A stretch of DNA of 63,141 nucleotides, filler included, from Asterionella formosa (lineage: Eukaryota): NCBI GenBank assembly GCA_002256025.1. It is 25 parts of 25 records of this genome, joined end to end, with 100 filler letters (N's around TTAATTAATTAA, not from the genome) between each part and the next. Parts side by side here need not be neighbours in the genome. Positions count along the whole stretch, not along the records: positions 7,622 to 10,050 come from NKIB01015267.1; positions 10,151 to 12,588 come from NKIB01015268.1; positions 12,689 to 15,126 come from NKIB01015269.1; positions 15,227 to 17,662 come from NKIB01015271.1; positions 17,763 to 20,197 come from NKIB01015272.1; positions 20,298 to 22,732 come from NKIB01015273.1; positions 22,833 to 25,265 come from NKIB01015274.1; positions 25,366 to 27,801 come from NKIB01015275.1; 17 more parts are not named here. One strand, given 5' to 3'. This document shows positions 9,140 to 57,189 of the stretch, one piece after another. The number at the start of each line of letters is the position of its first letter. Position 1 is the stretch's first letter. The notes below the pieces were generated by a model. That model was not told the DNA's origin. It saw only the letters and a list, made by a program, of their open reading frames with translations, and did not search any database. Position numbers and translations under genes: made by a program.

Positions 9140-9336
9140 TGAGCGATCTTGCACATCAATACAGATGTATATAGGGTTAGTGTTATATCATATATGTATC
9201 AGAACTCAATAATGAGAGAACTCGACTAACCCTCATTGTATACTTTGGTGTCGACTTAGAGAATGAGTTACACACAAGGATTAACAAATAAGCTCATATA
9301 TTCAACAAATACTACTACTTCTAGTTAGATACTTCA
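9140..9336 (+). mobile_element. Gypsy 3' LTR (TGAGCG...ATACTTCA), preceded by a polypurine tract
   Basis: Follows the integrase and GTGGGAGAG; homologous to 56946-57140 (minus) and 43824-44022. Confidence 0.85.
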
Positions 9337-9744
9337 CCAGGTACCTGGTCCTGGTGGTCCGATATGAAAACTGCTTTGAACCTACCGGTATATCGAAATT
9401 ATTTTACCGCTTTGAACCTCTATGAGTAGAATAACACGTTTTGTCACGAATTTCTGATAGTTTACAAATCTGAAACGATCCATCAGTGGGCGCGCTCTGA
9501 TAATAAAAAATTATTATATCATGTGTGTATTATAACACAAATTATTCTGGTGATCTGCTACATAATATCGTCCTTGCGCTCTGAAGAGATATTTTAGATT
9601 ACTTCTCTGACATTATATATATTTTTAACTTTAATTTTCAACAGTTAAATTTTCATATCAATGCATCCTCTTGTATGCTATGCCGCCTCTTGTTCATTAT
9701 ATGCATGAGTTCTATATATTCATCATTGTCGGTCACTGACCACC

Positions 9745-10050
9745 ATGTCGACTTTTATCTCATCTCCTGATGATGATGATGACATTATGATCACATTGCT
9801 ACTGTTAGCAATGTGCTATCCACCAGTAAATAGGACGCCATCATTCAGGGAAAGTTTGACTGTTGATGAGGTCAGAAGAAGAAGTGGCAAAATCCGTCGC
9901 CACGCACTACAGCATCCATTATCGAGTCCATTCTGGACTTTGTTCAACAGCAAGCATGATGATGCTCTGATTACCTTGTGTGGGTTTGACCATGCTTCTT
10001 TCGAGCTCCTACACCAGCTGTTCAAACCTTGTTTTTATTCCTTCACTCCC
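9745..10050 (+). CDS. N-terminus of an ISL2EU/Harbinger-like (DDE_Tnp_4-type) transposase, partial
   Basis: RRRSGKIRRHAL..P..SPFWTLF.S..DDALITLCGFDHASF resembles stramenopile DDE transposase N-termini; terminal-like repeats upstream at 9359-9445. Confidence 0.6.
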
Positions 10051-10439
10051 NNNNNNNNNNNNNNNNNNNNNNNNNNNNNNNNNNNNNNNNNNNNTTAATT
10101 AATTAANNNNNNNNNNNNNNNNNNNNNNNNNNNNNNNNNNNNNNNNNNNNTGGTGTTCTATTGGTTTTTAGTTTTATGATCATACAATCCTAAAACTATG
10201 ATGATTTACTGTCCCACTGCAGTAGCAACAGTCCTGAACATATGGTGTTCTGTTGCTAGTTTACTACTCCGACTACCCCCAGTATATCACTTACTACCTG
10301 CTACTGGTACTCTGTATATATATCTGATGTATTGTTATTGTCATATGATGTACCGGTACACATGAAGAGCTCCCAACCAAAAAAGGGGCTTAAACAATTT
10401 GCTACCAAAACCCTTGCGGTTATGACTAACACCAATTGA

Positions 10440-11960
10440 ATGGTCTAAATAATTTGTTTCAACGGACGTAGAAAATATCGATGCAAACAAATTTCAGAAA
10501 CAATACCGGTACACGTAGTCGTGGAAAACAATGGACAAATAGTGCATTGAGTATTTTCGAATTATGTATATGCGAGTATGATCATCCCAACCATATCAGA
10601 TGTTCCATATCGAGAGCGCCTTTGAATTTTATAAATGTATAACACTTAATATGTATATATATGTATATATATATATGTTTACAAATTTTATTACTATATT
10701 CATGGCATATATATTTTTTTTAAATCGTTCTGTCATGTTAACAAACAATGCCTGCTGCTTCATGAAAAGATACATTGTAGTAAAGCACATGACAAGCAAA
10801 GAAAGTTTATGCAATACATAACGAAAAACATTGAGGCTTCGACACATTGCGCATTAGAAGGATGGATGATGTTTAAGGTAATGAAGCCATCAATGTGGTA
10901 CTTGGATGACAATCGTTGGGAGGCAGGTAGCACAACAACAAATTGTTAACTAAACGCAGCCACATTTCCTTTTTTCTCTGTTGATTCAACAGCTCGATTC
11001 GCTTGTTGGGGAGCACCAATGTAAAACAAAACCAAATTGCTTAAGTGCTCTTGTCGCCCGTTGGACCTATTCATTTCTGTTGGAACAAAGCTGACAAAAC
11101 GCTTACCTTCTCTCAAAGTCAAGCTGACAAAAATGAACCGGTAAGTTTTATTCGACAACATTGGATACCCGAAACTTACTTATTCAAGAATTTGGCTTAC
11201 TGACAAGTTACTATTACAGACTTATGCATCAGTTGCATTGATTTGTGGTAAGTGAAACAAGAGGATATGATGGAATTGCGTGTTCTTGTGTCAATGTAAC
11301 ATGACTAGCTAACATATCATTCCTTCTCATTGTTACTGTAACTGCATGCATAGGAAAATAAAAATTATCAAACAACGGAATAAACGGCAACAAGTTCACA
11401 ATGACACTTACAGCAGGGAAAGAGACGCAGCATCAGTAAGGCACTGCCTCGCACACGATTCAGAAAAGAGGAAGAAATTGGCGAGACAGGAACAATATAC
11501 ATTGAGCCGAGTAGAGAGAGAAATGTTGGGTTGCTGGCATGTAGATTAATAGATAGCATTGCTTAATTTGATAGTTAAATTACGATCCATTTCAATCTAT
11601 TTTGAACAATGCTTGTGATTAGAATTATGATCATGTTTACGATAGATTTACGATGAAACAATTCACATGATAGCATAGAGTTTAGCTGGTTTTAGGATAC
11701 ATTGTAGTTATAATTTACATCGGGCGATCACGAGAAGTGAATATAATATGAGAAGGTTTATGATATTGATGGGAAATGTTGTTGATCAGTTTATATACAT
11801 TGTGTGATGATAATGTTCTTATTATCATTATACTTCAATGTCGGTAAAATATTAATAAATCATCATAGTTACAAGATACCTTGATCATATTTTTGATCCA
11901 AAAATTATCATATATACGAAAATCCTGTGCCACTCAGTGTACAATACCCTTGATCCTATA
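10440..11960 (+). mobile_element. Degenerate unclassified repeat element ending ...GTGCCA..AG.GTACAATACCC.TGATC.TAT; relatives at about 13850-14753, 28900-28988 and 44940-45497 (minus)
   Basis: Shared terminal motif in three contigs, shared GTCGTGGAAAACAATG block, and about 550 nt reverse-complement match between 10755-11330 and 44940-45497. Confidence 0.65.
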
Positions 11961-12688
11961 TGCATGATACTTTTTATTTGCAGACGACCATCAGTGTCTG
12001 ACATACAGAAATACACGATGGACATACTATTGATTTATAAAACATGTTGTCTTGTCGATCTCTGAAATACTAGCTAGTATGCAGCAAAATTGCAAGTGAA
12101 CTTTGGGTTGTAGTATGTTGTGATAGTTGCATGTTGGGAATGGGACCACTCTTCTAACAGCTTGTTGCATGTGTGGATGTGATTTGAAAATAGAATGTTG
12201 ATGACTAGATATCATGACAGCCATGAAAATGTGCGTTTGATAATGTAGTCGTCTGATTTATTCTGTTTACAATCCATGCCTACAGTAGTATAGAGTCATA
12301 CTTCTTCGTTTTCGTTGCCAATTCAAGCCCAATTGATTGCCAACTATAATCGATTTACCACCCAGTTCTTATTGCTAGAGAAAAGCCTTTGAATGTGTTC
12401 GTCTATTAATTACCGACTTCAAGTTTTTAAACTCTGGCGCATTATTGATTGGTGAATTGAATCAAGAAGCTTTCTGGATTCTCTATCACCATGTCATGCA
12501 AATTTGTCACTGCGGGTCCACCATTTGTTGCAAGCTGATAAAGCAGGTCGGGTAGTTGAAAATTCATACAAATAACATGATTCTTTGANNNNNNNNNNNN
12601 NNNNNNNNNNNNNNNNNNNNNNNNNNNNNNNNTTAATTAATTAANNNNNNNNNNNNNNNNNNNNNNNNNNNNNNNNNNNNNNNNNNNN

Positions 12689-12815
12689 TCACATGAAACC
12701 GTTAAAAGTAATCTTTTTTACGTGAAGAGTGGCATTAATGCATGTGAAGTACCACATAATTAACACTCATACGTAGACGAAATTTCGAAAAGTGGCGTAT
12801 TTCGCGTCTTAGATG
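12689..12815 (-). mobile_element. CATCTAAG-ended element with subterminal repeats, subfamily B; near-identical copy at 29970-30331
   Basis: Reverse complement equals 29970 CATCTAAGACGCGAAATACGCCACTTTTCGAAATTTCG; 21-nt tandem unit TTTTAACTGTTTCATGTGAAG. Confidence 0.8.
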
Positions 12816-17762: not shown

Positions 17763-20197
17763 CCTTCTCCCACTGCCCAAAAGAAGGGTATTGATGCCAG
17801 CTTGCCTTTTGCAGATGAAGCAAAGGAGGAAGAACGAGCACGGGACTCTGACTCTTCACATGGAGAAGTCCAGCATGTTGTGAAGGAACATGATGACCAC
17901 AAGGCTGGGCGAGGGTCTAACATTTCGTACCAGGATTCTTCGAAGGTGGTGGAGCATGAAGAACCAGCACCTACGCCAACCTATCCTGGAGCCATTGCGG
18001 TGGGAGGGAGAGATCGTGCACGTCCTAGTGCTGAAGTTACAAACAATGAATGGAATGTAGAGGAGTCCCATGTAATCGGTCAACAACCACTTGCCATTCA
18101 TGGCATAGAGGAAGGCCAACACCAACAAGAGGCCGTGTATGCCACTCTTGTTGATGAATTTCCCACTTCTGTGCGTACCACCATGGCGGCTGTCGACATT
18201 GAAGCTGAAGTGAAGGCCCAACGTCACCGTAGCATGATAAACATCATGATATCTTGTGGACTCACAAGTCTTGTTGCCATTGTAGTGGTTGTCCTTGCAG
18301 TTGTGCTTACTCAGAACAACAAAACGAATAATCCAACATCATATGTTCCGGACAATCAAACGTTGGCCCCCACATTTGTAATTCCCTCTACACCATTGTT
18401 ATTTTTTTTGTCGAATAACTCGTTTGACAATGGGGCTGCGCTTTTGACTAATGGCACACCACAACAGCAGGCAATGGTCTGGTTGGAAAATGAGAAAGGT
18501 ACATCAGAAATCATGTATACTGATAAGTTGCTCCAAATCTATGCCTTGGTGACTCTTTATTATGCAACCTCTGGAGACCAGTGGCTCAACCGTGGTTCTA
18601 ACGATGACAGTGGCAGGTCATTGTGGCTGTTCAGTACCTACAATTATTGTGAATGGTTTGGATTGAAATGTGATGCAGATAGAATCCAGGTGATAGATTT
18701 GCAAAACAATACCTTAAATGGGTCCATTCCCCTGGAAATTGGTCTTTTGTCAAGTTTAGGTAAGTTAATACAACCGGCAAGATACAAAAACAAATCATTG
18801 AAGATTGCTCACTAATGAAATGAGTCATATCATTTTACGACAAAGAATCTATTTATTTTTCAAGAAATGCCATAAATGGATCACTACCAAGTGAACTGGG
18901 TCTATTGAGAAGTTTAGGTAAGTTTACATACCGAGCAAGAGACAAAAACAAATCATTGAAGATTGCCCACTAATGAAATGACTCATATCATTTTACATCA
19001 AAGTGACTATTGATTTTTCATCAAATGCCATAGTTGGATCAATACCAAGTGAACTGGGTCTATTGACAAGTGTTATATTGTTGTCTGTAGATATTAATCA
19101 GCTTACTGGCCCAATTCCATTGGAGCTTGGACAGTTGACCAACATCATATTATTGTCATTGCTTGATAACCAGTTGACAGGAACACTTCCAACAGAGATA
19201 GGCCAATTGACTAACCTTGTTCAATTATTATTGGCAGGTAATTTTTTGAAGGGAACACTTCCTTCAGAGATTGGATCCTTGACAAGTCTAACACTATTGA
19301 ATCTACTTTCAAATCAGTTGACTGGTGCACTTCCGACAGAAATTGGGAATTTGAAAAATGTTGTAAATTTTGATGCAAGCTGGAACCTTTTCAATGGAAA
19401 ATTTCCTACAGAGATTGGATTCTTCACAAAACTAACATCATTGTATTTATATGATAATCAAATGACTGGAGCAATTCCGACAGAAATTGGCAAATTAACA
19501 AGCCTTATGAGATTTTACGCCTACAGCAACCGTCTCAATAGCACCCTTCCTACAGAGATTGGACTCTTGACAAGTTTAACCAGCTTGTCTCTTTTTGCTA
19601 ATCATTTGACTGGCACTATGCCTACAGAGGTTGCATTCTTGACAAGCCTAACATTATTGTATCTATTTGAGAATCAATTGACTGGTTCTTTTCCGACAGA
19701 AATTGGCAATTTGACAAGTCTCATAGAATTTAGAGCCTACAGCAACCATTTCAACAGTACAATTCCTACAGAGATTGGATTCTTGACAAGTCTAACATCA
19801 TTGTATCTATATGATAATCAATTGACTGGTGCATTTCCGACAGAAATTGGCAATTTGAAAAATGTTGCTATATTTGATGCAACCACAAACCTTTTCAATG
19901 GAACACTTCCTTCAGAAATTGGACTATTGACAAGTCTAACATCATTGTATCTAATTGATAATCAATTGACTGGTGTACTTCCGACAGAAATTGGCCATTT
20001 GACAAGTCTCAATGATTTTCAGATTTCTTCCAATATGTTTACTGGTGCAATTCCCACAGAAATTGGTCTAATGTCTTTATTGAGTAAGTTTTGCTTATCT
20101 GAAACTTCTATTTCTTGACCATTTGTTCTAAAATTTTACTTTCTTGACAGTTGTATTATCTTTTGGAAAGAATAATTTTACAGGGCCAGTTCCAACA
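17763..20197 (+). CDS. Transmembrane LRR receptor-like protein, partial at both ends; exons ..18759, 18846-18917, 19004-20083, 20151..
   Basis: Disordered N-terminus with YPGAIAV motif, TM helix LVAIVVVVLAVVL, cap motif YALVTLYYATSGDQW...CEWFGLKC, 24-aa plant-type LRRs (LxxNxLTGxIPTEIG), three phase-1 GT-AG introns. Confidence 0.92.
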
Positions 20198-20352: not shown

Positions 20353-21006
20353 TTACTCCTGTCCAGCTTGAAACAGAGCCGACTTTTCCAAAAGACCACG
20401 TCGGTTGTGCACCTTGACAATGTTTCCATCGGCTGCCAGTTCGCCAGAACGGCGCATGCGAACATAATCCTCTCTAGGGTACTTGGTGAATCCCCATTTG
20501 AGACTCTTGAGAATCTTCTGTCGTCCAGCAAACTTGAACTTTCCACGTCGAATGGCTTCAATGACGTGCGGTTCGTTGGCATCCTTGGATCTGACCGAGA
20601 TAAGAATTTGTCCAATTTTAACTCTAGCCGCAACACCAATGGGCTTTCCGTAGGAGTGGCGCATTCCTGACGAGAGTCTATCGGCTCCCGCGCAGGACAA
20701 CATTTTATTGGCACGTAGGACGTGAAACGGGTGAGCCCGGATACGAATGTGGTAGTTGTCCTTTCCAATGGTCTTGGTCAAGTGCTTGTTGATGGCGACA
20801 CGGCAGGCTTCTAGGGCCTCCGAGGAGACTTGCTGCTTCTCGTCCGTGGCAAGGTGAGCCACAAAGGGGAAGAGATCGACGGGGGCCTTCTTTGCACCGA
20901 CATCAAAAATTCGGATTTTGGCTTCTGGCACACCACGGCAGTAGCGGGACTTGATGTACGGCTTGTTCTTTTGGTAGCGGTAGCAGCGGGATGGACGGCG
21001 ACCCAT
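20353..21006 (-). CDS. RPL10: 60S ribosomal protein L10 (uL16)
   Basis: [27 protein letters not shown]...[17 protein letters not shown]...KWGFTKY; intronless; true start at 21006. Confidence 0.98.
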
Positions 21007-21589
21007 GTTGGACGAATTGCTGTTTCTGAGAAAGGAAGAGTGAGGGACTACAGTTTGTAATTCATTGATACATTCATGCGTCGACGCTTCCACCAGACGC
21101 CCTTCCCGTGATTTTCATGGTTCGACGCTGGCGTGAAACGTGGATACGATCGCGAATTCGATGGACGACGGAAAACAGCAATCCCATGGTACATACACAC
21201 ACCTTGACCGCACAAGAAAATAGATTGTCCAAGATGCTGTATTTATTACGCACGATAATCCATAGCAGGAGCAAGTAAGTGGCAAGGGCGGTAAAACTCA
21301 ATGTTTGTCTGTCTAGTATGGCCTTTTTTGGTGTCCGTGTCTGTGTGAAGGGACGACAAGTGGATGCCCCGGCAGAACCTGTTTTGTCATGACGAATGAC
21401 CACAGTGAATGACTATGGCTTCGACCGTGTAAATGTGTCATCTCACGACCACAATTCTGACGATGCGTTGTTCCTATTGGCTATTTTTTGTACATGCCGG
21501 TAATTGTTTATTTCTATCATGAACCATGAGCGAGCAGTAATTAAATTTCATTCATCTCGTGCGTTCAATTTATAATACCTGTATATACA

Positions 21590-22729
21590 ATGGCTGATGC
21601 GGAACCCACCATTGCTGTTCTCCCTCCACTCAATAGTGGCCATGACGACTATGGTACGTCCTCCTCCGATGATGATGACGACGAGTATGATGAGGCAGAA
21701 GCACTTCGAACCTGCCGTCTCAAACAAGGCAAGTGTCCACAATGTGGACAAGAATTGTACAAGTTGGTGCGACGAGGGGTCTTCAGGAAAAAATCAACGT
21801 TTCTACCATTGACAGTGGAAGGGCTTGTTGTTAGAGGTCAATGTTTGAAATGTCTTGATGGAGATGAAGCACTGGCCATTGCCTTGTCCAGCATGCCAGA
21901 TGGCTTCGTAGCACTACAGGAGCCACCCACAGATGGTGCGACATCGTCGAACATTGAAGGCTTTGAGCCAATCATCACAATTCCAATTGCCACCTACGTA
22001 TCCACCAATGCAGCAGTACAGCAGGTCGATGTTACTTATACAGGTGGATTTAATAATCATGGAGAACGGCATGGGAATGGAGTATTGGTATGGAGCAATG
22101 GTGATAAATATGTTGGAACGTTTTGGAATGGACTCCGTGAAGGGGAAGGGACCATTCAATTTGCAGATGGTACGTATTCGAGTTGAATAATCTATTGCAA
22201 ATGATATTCAAAATACTTTTCAACCATATCAACTGACGCACACACGTATACGTATACACACGCAATAGGATCCGAGTATGTTGGGAATTGGGAAAATAGC
22301 AAAATGCATGGTCAAGGGACTCGTCGGTTCAATAATGGAAATGTCTTTAATGGTACTTACAGAGAAGGTAAACGAAGTGGTCATGGTCGATGCTATTTTG
22401 CCAATGGTGACATGTATGTTGGTGAATGGAAATCAGATGCCATGTCAGGCTTTGGACGTTACTATTACAATGATGGCCAATCTTTTGAAGGATCCTTTCT
22501 AGAGGGAAAGAGACACGGGAAGGGCAAGTATCAACTCACTGATGGTCGAGTGGATATATACCGGTACATTAATGATATAAGAGTTGGAGAAGGGGTTCGC
22601 TGGTCGACCAATAGGAGGAAGGCATGGCGATTAGTCGACGGGAAACCGAAGGGGAAAATAAGTTTACAAATTGCTTCACAAATCATGCTTCACATCGGAG
22701 AAGGTCAACCAGAATTGCCAGGAGTATAG
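21590..22729 (+). CDS. MORN-repeat protein with an N-terminal Cys motif; intron 22170-22268
   Basis: Repeated YxGxWxxGxRHGxG units; GTACGT...CAATAG intron joins the two ORFs in frame (FADG/SEYVGNW); CPQCG...CLKC upstream. Confidence 0.9.
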
Positions 22730-22832: not shown

Positions 22833-23268
22833 GCATGCCGTTCCGAATGAGCAGGCTTTATTTCATTAATGAAACTCTTTAATTTAGTTGAATGAACTCC
22901 AGAAAATTACGTAAACAAATGTGTTACATATTAAGTGAACTTTATTCTAGAATTATGTGAACGAAATTACAGAATTACGTGAAGTATTTCAAATAATTAT
23001 GTGAAGTATTTTCAAATAATTATGTGAAGTATTTCAAATAATTATGTGAAGTATTTCAAATAATTATGTGAAGGTGATCACATAATATAGTGATGATCAG
23101 GAATGCATGCATGATACTTTGATCAAATATTTAACGTGATGTATTCAAATAATATATAGATATATTCAACTACGTATTTTGATGTTTTCAACTAATTCAT
23201 GTGATGCATTCAAAATTAACTAGGCTTATTTATGTGATGGTCACTTCACGTAATACGCGGCTTAGATG
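22833..23268 (-). mobile_element. CATCTAAG-ended element, subfamily A, inserted in a Copia integrase; copies at 44023-44410, 54100-54430 and, diverged, 25380-25640
   Basis: Near-identical reverse-complement match to 44023-44410; 22-nt tandem unit TATTTCAAATAATTATGTGAAG. Confidence 0.85.
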
Positions 23269-25265
23269 TGTGGAACAAATGCACACCATCAAAATGGTGT
23301 AGCAGAACAGGCTATTAGAACAGTATCTGACATGGCACGCTCAATGATTCTCCATGCTTCCAGTCATTGAAAAGGAGGGATCGACAGCACACTTTAGCCT
23401 ATAGCAGTTACTTACACTGTGCACCTTTACAATCATACACCAAATAATCATTCCTTTTGCCCAGCTGATCTCTACACTGGAAGCACAATTCCCAGACATT
23501 ATCTGCGAGATCTTCACACTTGGGGATGTCCAATGATTTCTTGACCCAACTCTTCAATCTGGGAAGAAATTGCCTAGATATCAACCACGATCACGACGAG
23601 GTGTGTTCCTTGGATTGAGCTCCATTCACTCCAGTGAAGTCCCCTTGGTCCTTAATTTGCTAACTGGGAGTATTACCACTCAATATCTTGTGGTTTTTGA
23701 CGACAGTTTCTCCACGGTGGCGTCAATTGGAAAAGATGAAGACCCTCCTGAATACTGGGACGGTTTGTGTCTGGAAAATACAATCTACATACCGAACGAT
23801 TCAAACACTGAAACACCAATGCATCTTCAAGACGACTGGCTCACTTCAGATGAACAAGCACAAAAACAGAGGGAGCTTCATCGACAACAGCGGATTCGTA
23901 CCACATTTAACCCCACACACTTCATTACGGCAGCTTTACCACCTGAAGGACCATCAACACCAGCAGAAAATATCGGCATTTTAGAGGGAGCATCTGCTCC
24001 AATACCTCTCCTAAAGCACCTATTCCACTCAGCACTGATAGTGCACACACAAAACACATACCAGATTCTATTGCAAGTTCACCTCACTCTTCACCACCAG
24101 TGCCAGCAGTTCGAGGGTCAGAATAATTGTACAAAATATATTGACGAAGTATAGTTGACCATGCTGGATCAAACCAAGCATGACAATTTCTACAAGAAAC
24201 AACTGGCATATTCAGCAGAATTACTTACCTGTTTTGACAGTTGTTCACAACATTACTGACCCTCGAGTGTATGCATCCAAAACACGCCGCAAAGATGACC
24301 CTGATTCTCCAAAGTTTCATCAGGCTATTCATGGCAAAAATTCAGAAAAGTACATTAAAGCCATGCAAATAGAGATTGCAACTCTCATTCTTCAACGTAC
24401 CTGGGAATCTGTGCCGAGAACTGCAAACCTCAATGTATTAAAAGGAACATGGGTATTCAAACTGAAACGGCTCCCAGGTGGCACACCTTATCGCTTCCAA
24501 GCACGCGTTTGTGCACAAAGAGATCTCCAAAAGGAGGGCATTGTCTTCTTCGAGACCTATGCACCTGTTTTACTTTCGTCTACCATTCGCTTGCTATTGT
24601 TAACTGTTCTCACTGAGGGCTGGTCAACCCGTCAAGTCAACTACACCAACGCATTTGCTCAAGCCAATCTCAAAGAATAAGTATATCTGGAATACCTCGC
24701 ATTTTGGACCCAAGTCCGGCACCAATAAAGTGTTGCGACTGCTAAAAAATCTATATGGACTTCGTCAAGCTCCTTGCACCTTCTTTGAGAAACTTCGGGA
24801 GGGACTTTTGGAACATGGGTACACTCAATCTCAAATTGATCCATGCTTGTTCATGAAACAAGGAATTATTTGTGTCTGCTATATCGATGACACCATATTT
24901 GCTGGAGCGGACTCACTTGTTCTTGAAGCAAAAATCCAAAGCCTTGGCGTCCATGAAAAGGAACAGCGTCACACTTTTGCACTTAGAAATGAAGGAGAAG
25001 TTGGTGCCTTTCTTGGAATTCAAATATAAAAAACTTGACTGCAGGAATATAATCTCACTCAAACCGGACTAATTGACACAAAGTCCTTGCAGCAACTGGC
25101 ATGTCTGATTGTAATGGAGTGGATACACCATTGACTAATACTCCCTCAGAAAATGATTTCGATGGAGATCCGTTCACTGAAACCTGGCAATACAATTCAA
25201 TCATTGGCATGCTGATGTACCTGACTGCAAATACCCGCCCAGATATTGCTTATGCCATTCATCAA
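23269..25265 (+). pseudogene. Copia pol remnant (integrase C-half, RT, start of RNase H region)
   Basis: AHHQNGVAE, PRSRRGVFLG, GTWVFKLKRLP, ETYAPV, LYGLRQAP, CYIDD, TRPDIAYA; several stops and frameshifts. Confidence 0.93.
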
Positions 25266-34865: not shown

Positions 34866-35389
34866 ATGATCACTACCACGCTTCATTCTATATCGCTCGC
34901 TGATCCTCTGGTGGCGAGGAGTGAGCTCAAGCAAGAAGCAGCAAGCCAAATCGCTGACCAATCAACGAAATCCGGCATTCAACTAAAGCCAGGACGCCTT
35001 TATGATCGCGAAATCGAACAAGAGCAATTGTTGCGTGCGTTTCAACGCATTTCAAGACCGAACTGCCAGAATCGAGAGTTAGTCCTAATAACTGGCTGCA
35101 GTGGCACTGGGAAGACACAGCTCGCACAAGGTCTGAAAGAAAAAGTCGTCGCATCTGGAGGTTTGTTTCTACAAGGAAAATGGGATCAATTTCAAACGCC
35201 TGAACCGTACGCTCCCATCGTGTCAGCATTCACAGAATATGCAAATTTAATTGTTAAGCAAGGGGAAGATAGCGTAGCAGAAATGAAGAAGATTATCGAA
35301 AAGGAAACCGAATCAGACTACCACTTGCTCACTGATATGATTCCGGCATTAAAGCAGATATTGACGGTGGAAACTGCTGGTACAGGGAT
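34866..35389 (+). CDS. AAA_16/STAND-type ATPase (family related to the ATPase module of hybrid Ser/Thr-His kinases), 5' partial
   Basis: LYDRExE...ELVLITGCSGTGKT (Walker A)...GGLFLQGKWDQFQTPEPYAPIVSAF. Confidence 0.85.
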
Positions 35390-35489
35390 NNNNNNNNNNN
35401 NNNNNNNNNNNNNNNNNNNNNNNNNNNNNNNNNTTAATTAATTAANNNNNNNNNNNNNNNNNNNNNNNNNNNNNNNNNNNNNNNNNNNN

Positions 35490-39647: not shown

Positions 39648-39742
39648 CAGCAAGTTGCGGTCATTTTGCTTAAACTAACATTTTGATCTGGGATAAAGAT
39701 AGCTAAATCTTTAGTTTCAGCAAAATTACCGCAACTTGCAGG
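39648..39742 (+). mobile_element. MITE of about 95 bp, GCAAGTTGCGGT TIR family
   Basis: CAGCAAGTTGCGGTCATTTTGCTTAAACTAA ... TTAGTTTCAGCAAAATTACCGCAACTTGCAGG; homologue at 43676-43775; related end at 33041. Confidence 0.85.
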
Positions 39743-40545
39743 TGTATTTATATTTGTCCAACAAGCAGGAAATCATTCGACAAAATCATAACAATAAATA
39801 CTAAAGATGAGCTTCACAGGGCATTGTACGGACATCAACAGTCAGGCCAGGCCTTAGCACCTATAGAAGCATTTGAAATTTATGGGCACGATGGGGTAAG
39901 AGAATCACTTTGTTTATCTTTAATCCAAGATGACAGTTGTCAGTCAGGATCTGGTCTTTACCAATATTGGATGAAACCAATTTGGCTATAAGCTCATGAG
40001 CTAATGGTTAAAGGTTAGATGTAGCATCGTTATACGATGCTACAAATTGTTTTGATTTCAGGTCGAAGGAGTCGATCTTATGATGATGATGTGTGACATG
40101 AGGAAAAAAGGGAGATGTGATAAATACCGGTAGACAAACCCCATGATACGTAATTTTGTTGTTAACGAGCGAGGCCCACGGAACATCATTATCATCATTT
40201 TTGTTGCACGCGCAATTAGGAAATAACGAAAGTGTTAAAATATTATCATAGTTGCACTTATCGGATAGCTTCTCTGAGAATCTCTACGTGTCTCGCGTCC
40301 TCTTTTCTCGTGATTCAAGGGGGCAATCTTTGGTTGATTCGTTCAGTTCATGGAAAGAGAATCATAGAAGAACCGAACGTCATTGGGAGTGATGCAAAAC
40401 GAGAAAATAGGGCGGAATCGAACGAACCATAAACAATCATCCACGNNNNNNNNNNNNNNNNNNNNNNNNNNNNNNNNNNNNNNNNNNNNTTAATTAATTA
40501 ANNNNNNNNNNNNNNNNNNNNNNNNNNNNNNNNNNNNNNNNNNNN

Positions 40546-42971: not shown

Positions 42972-43675
42972 NNNNNNNNNNNNNNNNNNNNNNNNNNNNN
43001 NNNNNNNNNNNNNNNTTAATTAATTAANNNNNNNNNNNNNNNNNNNNNNNNNNNNNNNNNNNNNNNNNNNNTCCGTTGCCTCAAACTTGCTTGCCGTGTG
43101 CATACACACACTGTCAACTTGTTTTCAATGGTATGTTGTTCTTGTATTCACTGTTGAGCTTGTCCGCATCTTTGTTACCATCAATAGAGCGACGCAGACG
43201 AAGTGGGTCTCTTCATTGTTGTTTGCTCCTGGAAAAGTCGGTGTCCGTGTCATCCTCATCAATAGAGAGACAAGTTCTTTTTATCATTGCGGTTTGCCGC
43301 TGGAAAAATTGGTACTCATGGTATCGTCATTCGCTCGTTGGAACCACTGTCCGTTGCCTCAAACCTGATTAGCGTTTGAGTACCGGTATGTGCACTGTCG
43401 ACTTTAGTACATTACAGGCGGAGTGACTTCGCTACTAAATTGCGTGATATAATAATATACCCTGTAGCACAATGCAGAATACATGTGCTTCCCAATCATC
43501 TCATCATGATTGATAAGATGATACTGTGATATCATGATAAGGTTACATCAATGCATACATCACCAAAGTATGATACATAATATTGAATAAAGTACATCAC
43601 ATAGCTATTATACATGATGCTTGGCGCAGCACCTGCCAGTAGAGATATACCCGGCAGTGGAGCATGCCTCTGGTA

Positions 43676-43775
43676 CCAGCAAGTTGCGGTCATTTTACTT
43701 AAATAAAAATTTTAATATCGGATAAAGATAGCTAAACTTTTAGTTTCAGCATAATTACCGCAGCCAACTTGCAGG
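43676..43775 (+). mobile_element. 100-bp MITE with TA target duplication, CCAG...CAGG ends
   Basis: TA|CCAGCAAGTTGCGGT...ACCGCAGCCAACTTGCAGG|TA. Confidence 0.85.
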
Positions 43776-43823
43776 TATCATCATTCAATGGGGAACATTA
43801 CCACAAACATTACCAGTACAAGG

Positions 43824-44022
43824 TGAGCAATCGTGCTCAACTACAGACACACCTACAGAGTTAGGTTTACACAGATTTATCAGAACTCTCTCAGGAGAGA
43901 ACTTGACTAAAACCTATTTGAATACTTTAGTGTCAACCTAGGAGATCGAGTTGCACACAAGGATTACCTAATAAGCTCATATAGCTATTCAATAAATACT
44001 ACTGCTTCTGATTAGTTAGCTA
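43824..44022 (+). mobile_element. Diverged Gypsy LTR (same family as 9140-9336), cut at its 3' end by a CATCTAAG element
   Basis: TGAGCAATC start; shared GAGAGAAC.YGACTAA, CACACAAGGATTA and ATAAGCTCATAT...AATACTACT blocks. Confidence 0.75.
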
Positions 44023-44411
44023 CATCTAAGCCGCGTATTACATGAAGTGACCATCACATAAATAAGCCTAGTTGATTTTGAATGCATCACATGAATTAGT
44101 TGAATACATCAAAATACGTAGTTGAATATATCTATATATTATCTGAATACATCACGTTAAATATATGATCAAAGTATCATGCATGCATTCCTGATCATCA
44201 CTATATTATGTGATCACCTTCACATAATTATTTGAAATACTTCACATAATTATTTGAAATACTTCACGTAATTCTGTAATTTCGTTCATATAATTCTAGA
44301 ATAAAGTTCACTTAATATGTAACATTTGTTTACGTAATTTTCTGGAGTTCATTCAACTAAATTAAAGAGTTTCATTAATGAAATAAAGCCTGCTCATTCG
44401 GAACGGCATGC

Positions 44412-44880
44412 GAATGCTCCTGCACTGAAAGGGTTTGATGCAATGTCAATTGAATGTAGAGGAAGATCATTGTGAGTTATCAGTAGCGTTGCTCATATAG
44501 CCGTCAAAATAGCGCAGTAATCTTACCAGAACAACGTTCATTCCAAACCTCCTTGTCCCTGCCTGTTGTCAACAACAATGCGTGAGCTGACAAGCCATAC
44601 TAGCATTTAGGTACACAACAAGAACACACTCACCATTCAACTGTATTGCAGAGTTCTTTTGGATTTCATCCGAATGCTCCTGAATTGAAAGGGTTTTCTG
44701 CAATGTCAATTGAATGTAGAGGAAGATCAGTGTGAGTTATCAGTAGCGTTGCTCATATAGCCGTCAAAATAGCGGTCAAAATAGCGCAGTAATCTTACCA
44801 GAACAACTTCCATTCCGGACCTCATTGTCCCTGCCTGCTGTCAACAACAATGCGTGAGCTGACAAGCCATATTAGCATTT
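44412..44880 (+). repeat. Direct duplication of about 200 bp (44412-44608 and 44672-44880); third copy on the minus strand at 53730-53935
   Basis: Repeated CAATGTCAATTGAATGTAGAGGAAGATCA.TGTGAGTTATCAGTAGCGTTGCTCATATAGCCGTCAAAATAGCG. Confidence 0.88.
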
Positions 44881-45612
44881 TTCGCCGACTATTCCGTTGT
44901 TTGGCTTTATGGTCCTATGCAGTTACAGAAACAATGAGAAGGAATGATTTGTTAGCTAGTAGTCATGTTACATTGAAACAACGACACGCAATTCCATCGT
45001 ATCCTCTTGCTTCACTTACCACAAATCAATGCAACTGATGCATAAGTCTGTTATAGTAACTTGTCAGTAAGCCAAATTCTTGAATAAGTAAGTTTCGGGT
45101 ATCCAATGTTGTCGAATAAAACTTAACTTTGAGAGAAGGTCAACGTTTTGTCAGCTTTATTCCAACAGAAGTGAATAGGTCCAACGAGTGACAAGAGCAC
45201 TTACGCAATTTGGTTTTGTTTTACATTGGTGCTCCCCAACAAGCGAAACGAGCTGTTGAATCAACTGAGAAAAAAGGAAATGTGGCTGTGTTTAGTTTAC
45301 AATTTGTTGTTGTGCTGCCTGCCTGCCTCCCAACGATTGTCATCCAAGTACCACGCACATTGATGGCTTCATTACCTTAAACATTCTCCATCCTTCGAAG
45401 GCGCAATGTATCGAAGTCACAATGTTTTTCGTTTTGTATTGCAAAAATTTTCTTTTCTTGTCATGTGCTTTACTATGACGTATCTTTTCATGAAGCANNN
45501 NNNNNNNNNNNNNNNNNNNNNNNNNNNNNNNNNNNNNNNNNTTAATTAATTAANNNNNNNNNNNNNNNNNNNNNNNNNNNNNNNNNNNNNNNNNNNNGCT
45601 GCTCCTCCTCTG

Positions 45613-50644: not shown

Positions 50645-53066
50645 CTGTTTGTTCTTTCATTTGCAAAGCTTTTTTTCAGGCAGTTGAAACAAGGGCAACA
50701 ATGTAAGATTTCTCAATAGCAAACAGCAAATCATGTTCAGTCTTTTTGGTAAGTAGGTCTCGCTTTGCAACAGTCAGTTCCATTTTGAAACTTCCATTCT
50801 GCTCTGACAAATCTCCGACTTGCCAGTAGGTTTCATAAGGGACACCTATACACACACTCCATGGGGTCAAAGGGCTGTTGATATATTCGAGAAAGGTGCA
50901 ATCAAATTGGGAGCCATGTCCATCTAGGATGAGGAAAGGGTTTATTCCATCACTGCGGTCAAACAATTCCAAAGAATCCATTTGGGCCAACATTCTCACC
51001 AACAGTTCTGCAGTTATGCTTCCTGATTCCGAACAAGAACACAAAGTGGGCACATGCTTTCCATTTAACACACACACAGTTCCCTGGGGATATCGCTTTC
51101 CTTTGCCAGTGTTAAGGTTGAAGTCATTCTCATTGCCATGCCATTCCACAAACGGGTTAATCCCCTGTACCCAACTAGTAAGTTCAAGCTCTTTGGCAGC
51201 GAATATTATAGCACACATCACTGGAGTTCCTTCAGCAGCCAGCTGTAAATCCCAAGACTGTAAAATGCGCATCCTTCATAGCACTTCGTTGTTGTGTTCT
51301 TGCTGCTGTTCCAATACATAACACTTTCTCATCCCCCTTCTGTCCATCTTTTGCTTGACTGGTGTTACTTCCGACTTCATCAACAAATATGAGTTTGTTG
51401 GGATGCTTCAAAATGTACTTGGTTTTCATTCCCAGGGCTCCTTCCTCATTTGCAACAACATCTCCTGATTTATTCAACTACACTTCTTCATCCAGCTTTT
51501 CCGCAATACCCATCTTGGCCATTTCTTCATACACATCTCTATACATCTGGTGCTCAAAGTTCCGTAATGTGCACCAGTCAGCACGCATCCCATCGAATTT
51601 GACACCTTTCTTTGCCTTGACATGAAGCCAATTGCGACTCATGAATCCCATCCAGTACCCTGATCCCAGTGGTTTAGAGAATGTTGGATCCTCTCTGAAT
51701 GAAATGCAATGTTTCTGCCTCCACAGAACAATATTTTCCATTATGGAAATACCAGACGCAAGTGAGTTAGCAAGTTCCAGTCCCTACCAACATGTAATTG
51801 GGACTCGCATTTTAGAGAGTTGGTCAATCAGCACAATAATGTATGGCTCAACTTCGAGCATTGGTGACATTGAAGCTTCGTTTTTCCCTGGGGTTTTTTG
51901 CGTTTTGCCCGAGATCTCACTGTTTCTATCTTTATTTTAAATCCAGGAGGAATACCAAGCGCCTCTTTTCTCCCCCCAATTATGCAGGCAAGTGTGAATC
52001 TACTTGCTTTCTTGTTCTTTTGCTGCAGTTCTTCTCTAACCCTCATGTATTCTGTGGCCGACTGGACAATGAATTCTTCGATTTTTCTTTGTATCGATGC
52101 TGATGCCATTTGAGTGGTGGTTCCCTTTGGCCAGCCTCCAGTAAGTATGGCGGTCATGGGGACAATGACTGCAGGAACACTAACTGCAGCAGTAGTCATA
52201 GTTGTAGAAAATAATTCAATACTATAATAGCATTGATATAATCATCTACTCCTGTCATGTTGTCATCCTCTTCTCTTGTCAAAGCAGATGCTCTAGTACT
52301 ACTTGAATAGTAAAATGAGAGCATATCTGCCTGAGAATCTCCTGATAGTATACCCATGTTGGGGACAGCACTGGCACCTGCCTTTCATAACCAGTAGTCG
52401 ACTTTTTTTGTCAGCCAAGGTAAACCTTCTGAGCCTTCACCATGTTGGTAATGGCTCTGTATGGTAGCTTTCCATTATTGTTCGCCTTGATTGTTTCAAG
52501 TTCTGTAACAATGCCAAGCATGTTGTGTTGAATAACGACCTGAGCATAATGAAGTGCTTCTGTCTCCTTCTTGATGCTGGAAGATCAACTTTTTCTTGAC
52601 TTCGGCTGGTTTGCATGATAGCTGTTTACTGTTTTTCATGTTTTGTGGACTGACGGATAAATAAATATCAACATCCTCAATCATACTATATAGGCGCACC
52701 CATATCATTTGCCATCTCTGCTGTACAATTCAAAACCAAAACAAATCTTTATTGCTGTAAATGTGGTTAACGTTCAGACACTAATTAAATCAATATCGAA
52801 ATATTTGTAAATATCATTGTAAAATATATGACGATGAGAACTCCAAACTTACCCTAATCCGTGTTCTCTATGTTTTTTTGGTCGATTCACTATTTCCGGC
52901 AATCTAAAGAGATGAACAATTGACTCCAAATCTTAAACAAAATACATAGCTGACTAGCCTACATGCTCGAGAAGGAGCCAGAACTCTCAGAATTTACATT
53001 TACTTAAGTTTTGATAGCAAAACGTGTTATTCTGCGTTCAATGGGTCACGGCAGTTTTTTACTGGT
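50645..53066 (-). mobile_element. pogo/Fot1-like DNA transposon, copy 2
   Basis: Colinear and highly similar to 40546-42971, with the same contig ends. Confidence 0.88.
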
Positions 53067-53510: not shown

Positions 53511-54430
53511 CACATTTAGCAACACCGCGCCGGTGTTTTTCTGGTAGAAAGTACGTTGTTGTGGTACAATGAGAGAATCCAGGCCGCGCCAGGAGTTTTG
53601 CCACACAGCAGGAGAGTCCACACACACAAAAATTAGCATGGTGAAAAAGTAAGCAATCAATGCAGCCAACAGCCAATCATCCCCTACTGGCTCTTCAGCA
53701 GCTAGATTAACATGTTTTTGTTGTGTATCTAAATGCTAGTATGGCTTGTCAGCTCACGCATTGTTGTTGATAACAGGCAGGGACAATGAGGTCCGGAATG
53801 AAAGTTGTTCTGGTAAGATTACCGCGCTATTTTGACGGCTATATGAGCAATGCTACTGATAACTCACACTGATCTTCCTCTACATTCAATTGACATTGCA
53901 GCAAACCCTTTCAATTCAGGAGCATTCGGAAGAAATCCAGGATTGAGTATTGATGCTTTCTGATTCTGTGTTAATGTCATATGATAACAGGGCTCCGTAA
54001 ATCATGAGTTGTTAGTGTGCCTCGGCGTGCTGTTTGTCATGCTGCCAGCTGATGCTGTATTTCTACTGAATTATTGAACAACTGGCACATAAAGATTCGC
54101 ATAGTCGTTAATACATTACGTGAACTATATTATAGAATTACGTGAACAAAAATTTAAGGCAATGTGAACTGAATTACAGAATTAATTGAAGTATTTCAAA
54201 TAATTATGTGAAGTATTTCAAATAATTATGTGAAGATGATCACGTAATATAGTGATGATCAGGAATGCATGCATGATACTCTGATCAAATAATGAACGTG
54301 ATGTATTCAGATAATATATAGATATATTCAAGTAAGCATTTTGATGTATTCAACTAATTCATGTGATCCATTCAAAATCAACTAGGCTTATTTACGTGAT
54401 GGTCACTTCACGTAATACGCGGCTTAGATG

Positions 54431-55290
54431 TACCTGGTGGGGTCAGTTCTTCGAATCAAAGCGATTGCAAGGGTGTGTTCACGCGCAATCTCCTTTCGCT
54501 CTTCAATGCTATGCCCATTCCCGTCCTGATCCTGGAAGGGTACCAGTTTATAATTTGCTGCCACGGTGCCGCCATGGTCATCAATGGTCTCAGCCCATCC
54601 TCGCAAACACTCAACGTAGTCTTCTGCAGACTGTCCTGCTTGTAACTGACGATAAGTGAGGAAACTGGTCTGAGCGTCCAAAAGTGCAATGAAACCGTTC
54701 CTGCTCTGATCGAACTGTAAAGTAATCGACTTGATCTGTTTTAGAAGCCAAAAACAATCGTTGTTGGCAGTCTTGTCCTTGTAGTCATCGTGCGTTTTGA
54801 CCTTTGCCTTCATGTCATCACTACACTGGCCCCAAATCACCGCAAAACACTGTTACTAGGTTGCTCTTCAGGGTGTAATTGCGCTTGACATACGTTTTTA
54901 CTTCTTCTGCGATAATCATTTTCATGGTCAGTCCTGCATCATCATCTAGGTCATCTGGCATGTCTACCATGGGAACCGCCATGGTGTCGGCAAACAAAGG
55001 GGCAAGGTCTTCAGAGTACTTCAGTGTTTTCCTCACATATCCATCTAGAACTTCTAACGTTTTGGCGTACTGGCGTCTGTCACTTTGTTCTTAATAGCAT
55101 TCAAATACGTTTCCGTTCATGCCCTCCGCGCTGCCCTTGAAAATGCCACGGTTGTTGCTTGTCGCTTGTGTCCTTGCCCGCCCACCACGGCTCCCGTGCA
55201 GACGGTTGTCCCTTCGCCCTCGCCCACTGGTGCTGCCGCTGATCGTTGCGTCTGGGGTGGTGCTCATGGGGTTTGTTGGTCAAATCTCTT
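54431..55290 (-). pseudogene. Diatom Copia (CoDi-like) gag remnant
   Basis: IWGQCSDDMKAKVK...DCFWLLKQIKSITLQFD...AIALIRRTDPTRY; frameshifted; truncated by a CATCTAAG element. Confidence 0.82.
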
Positions 55291-55687
55291 CAAATTGTCG
55301 CTGTTGGTTCCTTGATTGGTGGCTGTGGCCTTAAGCTGCGCTACTCGAATCTATAGAATGTAAATTCCGCGATTGAGATGTCGAAACTCCAGCCTTCCAT
55401 GTGAGTCTCAAAACGGCTGGCTCCTTTTGTTTTAATGTTTTTATTTTATTTATTTTTATTTCGAAACAATGTTGTTTCAACTACCGTAATCGACCGTATC
55501 GCAGGCCTTGAACCTTGTACTGTGTCAATCGAATACAGTTGATGAAATTAATAGTAACGAAGAAGTCGTCAACTTAAACTTTCACTTNNNNNNNNNNNNN
55601 NNNNNNNNNNNNNNNNNNNNNNNNNNNNNNNTTAATTAATTAANNNNNNNNNNNNNNNNNNNNNNNNNNNNNNNNNNNNNNNNNNNN

Positions 55688-56900
55688 ACCACTGAAATTT
55701 CCTGGGCAGATGTATTCTCGGTTGGATCGGCACGTGGCACGGTACCCCAACCGGATGGACGAGTATTATGACTCGATGTATTTAACATACGAGCATGTGG
55801 AACAGGCACAGGGTGAGCAGTGTCAGTATGATAGCTTTCCGTAGGATTGCTGTGTGCACCGCCTCCACGACCACCAAAATGTCCTCGTCTACCAAAACTG
55901 GAACGGCCATATCCATTTAGACGACCAGCCATGCGACCTGCTCGACCACCTTGAGTACGAGGATTCTGGAAACAATTGCCCCAAGTATGTACACCTTCAG
56001 GATGCACCGGGCAAGGACCACGATAATCATGGTACATACGACTGGCTTGTAGAGCTTGATGACGAACAGTTGCCTGAAGATCCCATGCGCGTCCGGCTGC
56101 ATTGACAATAGCACGCGCCCTTCACGACCACTTGGAGTAAAATAATCCTTGTAGAATTGACTACTGACACGCTCGTTTTCTTGATGCATCACACGATTGC
56201 CTTCAGCAATGCGAAGACGGTTCTGTGTGATTATTTGAAAACTGTTCTTGGGAAGATGCTTGTTTCGATCCTTAAACGATTGTTGACTCTCGAAGTAAGA
56301 GAGAACCGAGCGAATCGATTGGTCTGAAGTCTTTGCATGATTTAATTCAAACTCTTGTTGCCACTCATCGGGCATAGAACGGATAATGATAATCCGTATA
56401 TCTTCTTTTGACAATCCAACTTGATCTTCTGGATGAGGCATTAGTTGAAGTAGCCTGTTTAAAGTTTTAATACGAGCTCCGAAATCCATTACCAACATAG
56501 AAAAGGGTTTAGATAAATAACGTAGCATCCATTGTCATTGATGTTGAAAACTCTCATTTGGTAAACGATCGTCTAACCATAAAACCATCGCTTCATCGAA
56601 ACTATTGTAAGATTGATCTTCTGGGTGTACTTCCACATTCAACCAATCCGATAAGGCAATGTCTGTCAAACACCTTTTAAAGTAGGAAAAGGTATCTGCA
56701 GGGCTAAAGGCACATGTGTTAGCCATGTCACGAAATTGACTCACTCCAATTAACAATGCTTCCACTGAGCTTCCATCGATCATATCTTGATCAAACGATT
56801 CAAACCTTCCACCGGTTAAAGCAACTCTGAACCTTTTAGTCTTGATGGTCAATAAATTGTAGTCTTTGATCAAAGGAATCACAGGAACCCTTGAATACAT
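55688..56900 (-). pseudogene. Gypsy gag remnant
   Basis: LRYLSKPFSM, SMPDEWQQEF and a CPVHPEGVHTWGNC (CX2HX4HX4C) knuckle; directly downstream of an LTR. Confidence 0.8.
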
Positions 56901-56945
56901 TGCCAAGTTTGTTGTCTTCTAATTCGAATCTTTTTGAATTCAAAG

Positions 56946-57140
56946 TGAAGTATCTAACTTGAAGTAGTAGTATTTATTGAATATATGAGCTTATAAATTA
57001 ATCCTTATGTACAACTCATTTCCTGAACTGTAATCAAAGTATAGAATGGATGTTAGTCGGGTTCTCTCATTATTGAATTCCGATGTATTTGATATAACCC
57101 TAACTCTATATATATCTGTATCGATGTGCAGGATTGCTCA
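56946..57140 (-). mobile_element. Gypsy 5' LTR (195 bp)
   Basis: Minus strand TGAGCAATC...GTTAGATACTTCA, homologous to 9140-9336. Confidence 0.85.
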
Positions 57141-57189
57141 CCAGGTACCTGGTACTCCGGAATACCTGGTACTGGTACCTGGTACCAGG

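Follow-up and report, generated by a model that had tools for sequence, protein, structure and literature searches.

A Gypsy-type LTR retrotransposon family of Asterionella formosa that probably integrates at one fixed position of a GGTACC-W-GGTACC palindrome

The analysed window, a stretch of 63,141 nucleotides from the Asterionella formosa assembly GCA_002256025.1, is made up of 25 separate contigs of 2416-2442 bp each, placed near length order and divided by N44-TTAATTAATTAA-N44 spacers. Three diverged copies of one long terminal repeat (LTR) lie on contigs c4, c23 and c18 (Table 1), and our re-reading and alignment found these copies, their ends and their flanks as the initial annotation had described them. 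Since the window consists of separate contigs, the three LTRs represent unlinked loci, and positions 9140-57189 do not form one locus. LTR2 is 82.7% identical to LTR1 over 197 nt and LTR3 75.5% identical to LTR1 over 200 nt; with their TG...CA termini they form the direct long terminal repeats typical of Ty3/gypsy elements. The 12-mer CCAGGTACCTGG has just two copies in the window, both at the ends of LTR1 and LTR2.

A decayed integrase frame and the purine tract GGTGTGGGAGAG lead into LTR1, which is hence the 3' LTR, and LTR2, on the minus strand, is followed by gag with a CCHC knuckle and is hence the 5' LTR; this arrangement bears out the earlier assignment of the element to Gypsy. The integrase frame is matched by Pfam Integrase_H2C2 (E=6.3e-05), and no Pfam family matched the gag region. 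The polypurine tract (GGGAGAG) is found before the 3' LTR and GGTGTGGGAGAG also precedes the LTR in 11 of 15 metagenome loci, while the leader CTTTGAATTCAAAAAG... after the 5' LTR carries no TGG-type tRNA site. In the window the integrase adjoins the 3' LTR, and in the long relatives described below it comes last in pol, as in Ty3/gypsy elements. The stretch of c4 that separates the integrase from its LTR holds no ORF; the window does not reach further upstream in the element, and it showed no reverse transcriptase of this Gypsy family itself.

A homology search with the decayed integrase that was restricted to longer proteins gave no match at E<=0.001, and an exhaustive HMMER search returned 1121 relatives at E<=0.001. 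Six of these relatives were scanned against Pfam, five of them long (1445-1510 aa; P0007, P0012, P0016, P0017 and P0029) and one short (P0002, 473 aa). All five long relatives show RVT_1, then RNase H, then Integrase_H2C2, with an rve match in four of them (all except P0007), and P0002 comprises integrase domains alone. The properties of the window copy's integrase are taken from such relatives because that copy is dead (nine in-frame stops).

Table 1. Features of the window, with positions counted along its whole length.
Feature	Coordinates	Strand	Remarks
LTR1, 3' LTR, contig c4	9140..9336	+	197 bp, TG...CA; integrase end and polypurine tract precede
LTR2, 5' LTR, contig c23	56946..57140	-	195 bp
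LTR3, contig c18	43824..~44018	+	final 4-6 nt missing, unrelated repeat R22 starts there
3' flank of LTR1, CCAGGTACCTGG	9337..9348	.	candidate 5-bp duplication CCAGG (9337-9341), then TACC
Upstream flank of LTR2 (element sense), CCAGGTACCTGG	57141..57152	.	reads GGTA CCTGG before LTR; begins array 57141-57189
Upstream flank of LTR3, TACCAGTACAAGG	43811..43823	.	AGTA CAAGG; two mismatches to GGTACCWGG
Decayed integrase frame (H2C2 zinc finger, core, GPY/F-like end)	7852..9111	+	9 in-frame stops; ends 28 nt short of LTR1
Polypurine-type tract GGTGTGGGAGAG	9128..9139	+	abuts 3' LTR; sequence reading
Leader (CTTTGAATTCAAAAAG...) and gag with CCHC knuckle	55688..56945	-	3' of LTR2, up to contig end; translation
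Unoccupied heptamer array, example, (GTACCTG)3.7	4182..4207	.	
Exact GGTACCWGGTACC sites (n=9)	305, 312, 4188, 4195, 4626, 16699, 57174, 57912, 57956		
Repeat family R22	22833-23269, 44018-44880, 54115-54435		
Repeat family A	5084-5507, 43175-43615		
Repeat family S	10756-11388, 44884-45497		

A pattern lying inside the LTR, and blind to the flank, retrieved the 15 metagenome loci, five of which hold an LTR-flank junction, and found no match in the genome-contig or viral-contig collections. Together with the three in the window these give eight readable junction sequences only, and all eight lie at GGTACCWGG or a near match, in one phase. Four match the 9-mer exactly, while the rest deviate from it at one position (two junctions) or at two positions (two junctions); CCWGG is exact in six of the eight, and the other two read CAAGG. 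Per window position, the background is 0.029% for the exact 9-mer, 0.25% for up to two mismatches and 0.19% for CCWGG. In run X1, the probable source, 51 loose ends on the 5' side of the LTR yield the consensus ...GGTACCAGGTACCTG / ...CCCGGTACCAGGTACCTG plus an aligned G, a bulk consensus with agreement near 0.5 that comes from short assembly contigs. A further 29 and 43 records (72) of the run contain the LTR with CCAGGTACC or CCAGGTACCTGGT, past which their sequences part (agreement 0.39-0.47); those whose alignment continues through the c4 flank are selected for likeness to it. In 99 records the LTR passes into the leader. Given the uniform phase in 8/8 junctions against a background of 0.25%, and the agreement of the run X1 consensus, the preference for CCWGG-like sites, noted at first from three junctions, is real. 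Since every readable junction falls at the same spot of the motif, DNA sequence seems to decide where the element inserts, a rarity among Gypsy-type elements.

Two other sources of the motif had been named beforehand, namely that the flank belongs to the element or that it descends from a single ancestral insertion, and neither agrees with our results. The borders between polypurine tract and LTR and between LTR and leader lack the motif, both in the window and in the eight loci that show both borders, which rules it out as a part of the LTR or of the element. The junctions stem from at least three LTR subtypes, 75-86% alike, and the five 5' flanks (those of c23, c18, L008, L014 and L015) show no relation to one another past the first 9-13 nt or so and have only the motif in common. 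The flanks would be compatible with a 5-bp CCWGG target-site duplication, which stays a candidate, as no copy, whether element or solo LTR, showed its flanks on both sides. Its sole candidate pair is the 5' junction of L014 and the 3' junction of c4, both of LTR1 type, near copies of repeat F and reading CCAGG, an agreement that would be expected about half the time in any case.

Taken at face value, the junctions suggest that the family would integrate, with nucleotide precision, into the 13-bp palindrome GGTACC-W-GGTACC, always at the same place, GGTA/CCWGG/TACC. The integrase would attach each LTR end (TG...CA) to one of the two strands, at points that lie five bases apart with the W in their centre, and the CCWGG between the cuts would then be duplicated to give ...GGTA CCWGG, LTR ... 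LTR, CCWGG TACC.... We favor this fixed-position integration as the probable reading, and think it most likely that the complex of integrase and DNA recognizes the motif without help, since the placement is precise to the single nucleotide and the integrase carries no additional domain for targeting. Instead of the C-terminal targeting domain that had been envisaged, the near-intact integrase of L003 terminates directly after ...GPYTIIQV...INIRRIKPFHR, a GPY/F-like module, and in long relatives (e.g., P0007, P0012 and P0016) the integrase match extends to the final residue. The Pfam scan of the six relatives found no chromodomain, which sets them apart from the chromoviruses. Overall, the family is a high-copy Ty3/gypsy-type LTR retrotransposon of an alga, and its integration at a fixed palindrome position is likely.

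Alternatively, a dimeric DNA-binding host protein sitting on GGTACC palindromes could keep the integration complex a set distance away, in which case the integrase would need no sequence preference of its own. The motif is indeed a perfect palindrome, like the sites of dimeric factors, and its clustering and roughly 80-fold over-representation fit a genomic feature that is bound by protein; tethering is, moreover, the basis of targeting named for Ty1, Ty3, Ty5, MLV and HIV in PMC5408687. However, all eight junctions share one nucleotide phase and the motif is symmetric about the presumed duplication, as is expected if the integrase complex reads its own target, and neither L003 nor the six relatives revealed a partner-binding integrase domain beyond the standard ones. 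We therefore regard tethering as rather improbable, although the present data do not separate integrase recognition from a motif-bound host protein.

Most LTR retrotransposons and retroviruses choose sites via chromatin or tethering proteins and have only a weak sequence bias. The closest known systems include Drosophila errantiviruses and their two-ORF derivatives (the gypsy, ZAM and Idefix subgroups), whose integration is specific for the short palindromes TATA, CGCG and ATAT, with ZAM-type elements favoring GC-rich repeats, according to the review PMC5408687. The same review reserves true sequence-specific integration for insect errantiviruses, with targets of 4-6 bp. The family studied here resembles errantiviruses in belonging to the Ty3/gypsy group and in having a palindromic target, albeit a longer and different one, GGTACCWGGTACC, with nine conserved positions per side that would make up a 13-bp palindrome. 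It differs from them in its TG...CA termini, as opposed to the AGT...AnT of errantiviruses (PMC5408687), in the lack of any env seen between the integrase and the LTR on c4 (the upstream part of the element being outside the window), and in its host, an alga and not Drosophila or another insect. Yeast Ty3 is alike as a Ty3/gypsy element that is placed with nucleotide precision and has no chromodomain. It integrates at Pol III start sites, where the transcription factors of tRNA genes and not a DNA motif position it, whereas the sites here have a palindromic sequence in common. The weak consensus sequences of retroviruses and plant LTR elements, among them GT(A/T)AC for HIV-1 (PMC5408687), are likewise symmetric and centred on a 5-bp duplication with a central W (see also PMC10547254 and PMC6911290), but they reflect a weak bias over thousands of sites, whereas here four of eight junctions match the 9-mer exactly and eight of eight do so with at most two mismatches. 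Non-LTR retrotransposons that target repeats and microsatellites share the use of an abundant, harmless repeat as landing site (PMC4640811), but differ in employing an endonuclease and target-primed reverse transcription. According to the abstract of PMC3706591, strict target specificity was, up to that work, known from non-LTR retrotransposons alone.

A text search of the literature, covering titles and the starts of abstracts of the papers listed, found no published account of this target motif. If our reading holds, a TG/CA Gypsy element that inserts in a 13-bp palindrome at a single phase, in an alga, would extend the picture beyond the errantiviruses. Such a compact integrase could serve to study how target DNA is read, and tools for site-directed integration might be developed from it.

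The motif itself is in marked excess in the window, with 35 sites against 0.42 expected, about 80 times the prediction from composition, partly in 7-bp arrays. Given this excess, targets would be plentiful, mostly outside genes, and landing there may benefit the element as a safe haven; repeated, largely non-coding targets would explain how a very abundant element coexists with a gene-dense host. Only tentatively do we entertain the stronger version, in which a plain Gypsy integrase with no add-on reads the 13-bp palindrome with near restriction-enzyme strictness, and element and arrays form a self-sustaining safe-haven pair, the arrays perhaps having been expanded by transposon activity; this would make it a natural site-specific LTR integrase outside insect errantiviruses. 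The initial annotation went further still, taking the arrays for excision footprints of a DNA transposon that serve as landing pads, so that one class of element creates the targets of another. The 7-bp array unit can indeed be written as CCWGG plus TA, that is, as duplicated targets with two filler bases; the arrays occur clustered, and contig c1 encodes a PIF/Harbinger transposase at 380 bp from one of them. PIF/Harbinger elements, however, make 3-bp TWA duplications, and a transposon that duplicates 5 or 7 bp at the motif was not found in the window. Slippage of a 7-bp microsatellite accounts for the arrays equally well, and in c2 and c23 the array units alternate with GGTACC-GGTACC and further units rich in GTAC, a mixture that does not fit one footprint. 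The landing-pad part fares no better: two of the five new junctions (L008 and L014) lie at one isolated motif each, with no array, and arrays are therefore not required for insertion. Altogether, we find the footprint model highly improbable. An inverted-repeat scan of the array regions showed that the arrays pair up, which is uninformative on transposon ends because palindromic units pair anyway.

Integration at a fixed palindrome position also has to be set against shared ancestry, in which one insertion was copied with its flanks, and against retention, in which insertion is random and copies survive only in harmless arrays; LTR1 and LTR2, being 82.7% alike, might once have bounded a single old element, the contigs are short and in run X1 the c4 flank is a repeat in its own right, but we give these readings hardly any credence, because the five 5' and three 3' flanks differ wholly beyond the motif, the run X1 flanks diverge directly past it, and survival in arrays can yield neither one phase out of seven in 8/8 junctions nor the two junctions at isolated motifs.

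Several other repeats lie close to these features. From segments common to seemingly neighboring contigs we had suspected that the LTR3 locus duplicates the LTR2 locus, and dropped this idea as the contigs are unlinked; the common segments are separate repeat families, R22, A and S. On contig c16, positions 39648-39743 were considered as a paralogous empty site for LTR3 and rejected, as the homology ends before the junction. As a minor observation, the motif CAAGGCAT adjoins two arrays, these being the only two cases.

All eight readable junctions between this Gypsy-type LTR family and its flanks, three from the window and five from metagenomes, stand in the same phase of the motif GGTACCWGG, and the site preference is real. 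Counted towards the element end, the eight junctions carry G at -9 in 6, G at -8 in 7, T at -7 in 7, A at -6 and C at -5 in all, C at -4 in 6 (A in 2), and W at -3, G at -2 and G at -1 in all, with no clear base preference beyond -9. Four of them match GGTACCWGG exactly and four imperfectly, two with one mismatch and two with two, whereas on both strands of the window 0.029% of positions match it exactly, 0.075% with at most one mismatch and 0.25% with at most two (CCWGG alone, 0.19%). The preference for CCWGG-like targets proposed in the initial annotation is thus borne out, all eight junctions lying within two mismatches against a background of 0.25%, and we consider it very probable that the family chooses its sites with nucleotide precision.

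In a BLAST search of the window with LTR1, LTR2 matched at 82.7% over 197 nt and LTR3 at 75.5% over 200 nt, with no match of note beyond these two. In an alignment of the three copies the LTR starts with TGAGC... and finishes with ...ACTTCA, and the two occurrences of CCAGGTACCTGG in the window both lie at LTR junctions, so that the copies and flanks agree with their first description. The last few bases of LTR3 are missing where repeat R22 starts; R22 ends at the identical base in three contigs (23269, 54435 and 44018), and in c22 this end is followed by ACCTGGTGG. The window contains 48 runs of 44 N, paired around a 12-mer (N44-TTAATTAATTAA-N44), and these spacers divide it into 25 pieces (c1-c25) of 2442 down to 2416 bp, ordered nearly by length. 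Contigs c17 and c21 are 97.7% identical from first to last base, being either alleles or a collapsed repeat. Contigs c15 and c24 overlap, the final 518 bp of the one matching the initial 518 bp of the other at 99.4%, so that a single Copia element (gag-protease-integrase-RVT_2) is divided between them. Given these spacers and matches, we take the window to be a series of small contigs that are unlinked; neither distance nor neighbourhood across a spacer has any meaning, and inference from them is void.

Features of the window and LTR-flank junctions, with flanks in element sense
Feature	Location	Before LTR	After LTR
LTR1	9140-9336 (c4, 7622-10050)	...GGTGTGGGAGAG	CCAGGTACCTGGTCC
LTR2	57140-56946, minus (c23, 55688-58106)	...GTACCAGGTACCTGG	CTTTGAATTCAAAAAG
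LTR3	43824-44018 (c18, 43072-45497)	...TACCAGTACAAGG	
L008 (metagenome)	5' end	...ACAGGTACCTGG	
L014 (metagenome)	5' end	...GGGGTACCAGG	
L015 (metagenome)	5' end	...CCTGGTACAAGG	
L001 (metagenome)	3' end		CCTGGTAGGTACC...
L004 (metagenome)	3' end		CCTGGTGCCAGG...
R22, 22-bp tandem units	22833-23269, 54115-54435, 44018-44880		
Repeat F in c4	9487-10050		
Spacers	2443-2542, 4984-5083, ... 60626-60725		
c17; c21	40546-42971; 50645-53066		
c15 end; c24 start	37401-37918; 58207-58724		
PIF/Harbinger transposase (c1)	709-1944 (+)		
GGTACCT array (c1)	298-325		
Array pairs	4182-4207 with 4626-4644; 57170-57189 with 57911-57979		
Host genes on other contigs, as listed: LRR protein with 72-bp repeats, ribosomal protein L10e/L16, MORN-repeat protein, Utp11, AAA_16 ATPase	18982-20115, 20356-21114, 21545-22726, 31922-32851, 34698-35438		

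The integrase upstream of LTR1 lies in a single frame with 9 stops, comprises an H2C2 finger (Pfam E=6.3e-05) and the core, ends in GRGPYSIIQVYANG...INIHYIKPFQR and stops 28 nt before the LTR; downstream of LTR2, a gag-like frame on the minus strand has one stop and a CCHC knuckle. This arrangement confirms that LTR1 is a 3' LTR and LTR2 a 5' LTR. An exhaustive HMMER search yielded 1121 integrase relatives at E<=0.001, of which 30 reach E<=1e-30. All five long relatives scanned (1445-1510 aa) have RVT_1, followed by RNase H and then by Integrase_H2C2; four of the five also have rve, and the query match extends to the last residues of long relatives (e.g., P0007, P0012, P0016). The sixth relative scanned, P0002 (473 aa), has integrase domains only, and a chromodomain is absent from all six. 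Hence, judged by the domains of the integrase and its relatives together with the gag frame, the family is Ty3/gypsy-like and non-chromoviral. Directly after the 5' LTR comes the partly palindromic leader CTTTGAATTCAAAAAG (56930-56945, minus strand), also seen in metagenome loci; a TGG-type tRNA primer site is absent at this place in the window copy and these loci.

Further junctions were sought with a pattern from the conserved inner LTR block, which is therefore blind to flanks; it found 15 metagenome loci (L001-L015) and had no match in prokaryote genomes or viral contigs. In eight loci (L002, L003, L005, L007, L010, L011, L012, L013) the LTR lies between integrase end plus PPT and leader plus gag, reflecting either an assembler's passage through a high-copy element, or tandem elements with an LTR in common, or circles with one LTR. 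Two (L006, L009) are cut by the contig end, and five contain an LTR-flank junction (Table). The junctions come from LTR subtypes only 75-86% alike, and beyond the motif the flanks are unrelated to one another and to the window, except for L004 and L014. The L004 flank reaches the start of c25 roughly 200 bp away from the LTR (60726-60877 vs L004 852-1004, 93% identical), so c25, which also contains a PP2C gene fragment, probably adjoins a copy of the family. Repeat F, of very high abundance in the public run X1 (labelled algae metagenome), occurs in the L014 flank (2-72) some 80 bp upstream of the 5' LTR, inverted relative to the c4 copy, which is 150 bp past LTR1. Since five different 5' flanks are present, the sequences point to at least five independent insertions.

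The same three in-frame stops (...ITDM*LILGYQCR*VIIDK*LRR...) occur in the window copy (8107-9111) and in all six LTR1-type metagenome copies covering this stretch (L002, L005, L007, L010, L011, L013); the stretch is open in the LTR2-type copy L003. A dead LTR1-type subfamily apparently became amplified, presumably in trans. Of the 24 public runs listed, 18 contain c4: the share of sampled c4 words found was 0.89 in the algae metagenome run, which is probably the source, 0.50-0.56 in eight others (freshwater, riverine or without organism label) and 0.25-0.49 in nine more, including two labelled marine, one labelled lake water and one labelled with a named organism. Contigs of four runs were aligned to c4 at 80% likeness; 75,447 X1 records fit c4, hence the family is very abundant there. 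In 51 X1 records an unaligned part precedes the LTR start, with consensus ...CCCGGTACCAGGTACCTG and then an aligned G (agreement 0.5), and 99 leave the LTR end into the leader TTTGAATTCAAAAAGAGTC. LTR plus CCAGGTACC is common to 29 records before divergence (agreement 0.39), and LTR plus CCAGGTACCTGGT to 43 (agreement 0.47). These records are short assembly contigs, not loci, and those aligning into the c4 flank were selected for likeness to it; the loose ends show that a motif recurs and that varied sequence comes after it, nothing more.

Combined, the two half-sites (GGTA CCWGG TACC) make up a 13-bp palindrome, GGTACC-W-GGTACC. Integrases attach the two element ends at positions a few bases apart on opposite strands, and the intervening stretch is duplicated; with TG...CA ends, the duplicated stretch would here be CCWGG, 5 bp, a step we infer because no copy with both flanks occurs among the window LTRs and metagenome loci. 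A symmetric complex acting on a symmetric site would make both orientations look alike and allow both CCAGG and CCTGG. L014 and c4 are the sole candidate pair (both LTR1-type, both CCAGG, with repeat F nearby in mirror orientation); they may be two sides of one insertion, which would weakly support duplication. A C-terminal targeting domain, which the initial annotation named as a feature to look for in the integrase, finds no counterpart, as the frame has no extra domain and the six relatives scanned have no chromodomain. Because the phase is exact and no extra domain is present, we favour the integrase as the putative reader of the site over a host protein; precise site choice including recognition by the integrase appears reasonably probable. 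The motif at the junctions is not a regional effect of arrays, since a random hit in a 7-bp array could fall in any one of seven phases, and in L008 and L014 the motif stands singly amid ordinary sequence. The two alternatives raised in the initial annotation are contradicted by the borders and differing flanks: the motif is not LTR sequence, as the PPT precedes the 3' LTR and the leader follows the 5' LTR in the window and the eight loci with both borders, nor was a single ancestral insertion copied with its flanks, which are unrelated beyond the motif.

Most LTR retrotransposons are described as integrating non-specifically, and the HIV-1 target consensus, GT(A/T)AC, as weak (PMC5408687). 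Strict target specificity was previously attributed only to non-LTR elements (PMC3706591), and non-LTR elements targeting repeats and microsatellites have been described (PMC4640811). Literature searches for the motif, for CCWGG with retrotransposon and for the topic in general gave no relevant match. The present family resembles insect errantiviruses in the reading of a palindromic target at integration, without belonging to them: it has TG/CA ends, no env seen, an algal host and a far longer target.

The window contains 35 occurrences of GGTACCWGG, versus 0.42 expected from shuffles; they are clustered in c1, c2, c7, c12, c14 and c23, and nine unoccupied sites match the 13-mer exactly. The arrays, whose 7-bp unit is CCWGG plus TA, are intermixed with GGTACC-GGTACC and other GTAC-rich units. 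The sole DNA-transposon gene, an open 412-aa frame for a PIF/Harbinger transposase (Plant_tran E=8e-79, DDE_Tnp_4), lies about 380 bp downstream of a GGTACCT array. The PIF/Harbinger superfamily makes 3-bp duplications, and no transposon found in the window has ends or a duplication fitting the array unit. The proposed origin of the arrays as excision footprints is thus unsupported; slippage of a microsatellite would account for them equally well. Their proposed role as safe-haven landing pads is likewise unsupported, given the insertions at single motifs in L008 and L014. In two array pairs the members lie 420-770 bp apart and are mutual reverse complements (in c2, W is T on one side and A on the other); this pairing could be chance, arising from palindromic units, or could mark the ends of foldback-like elements.
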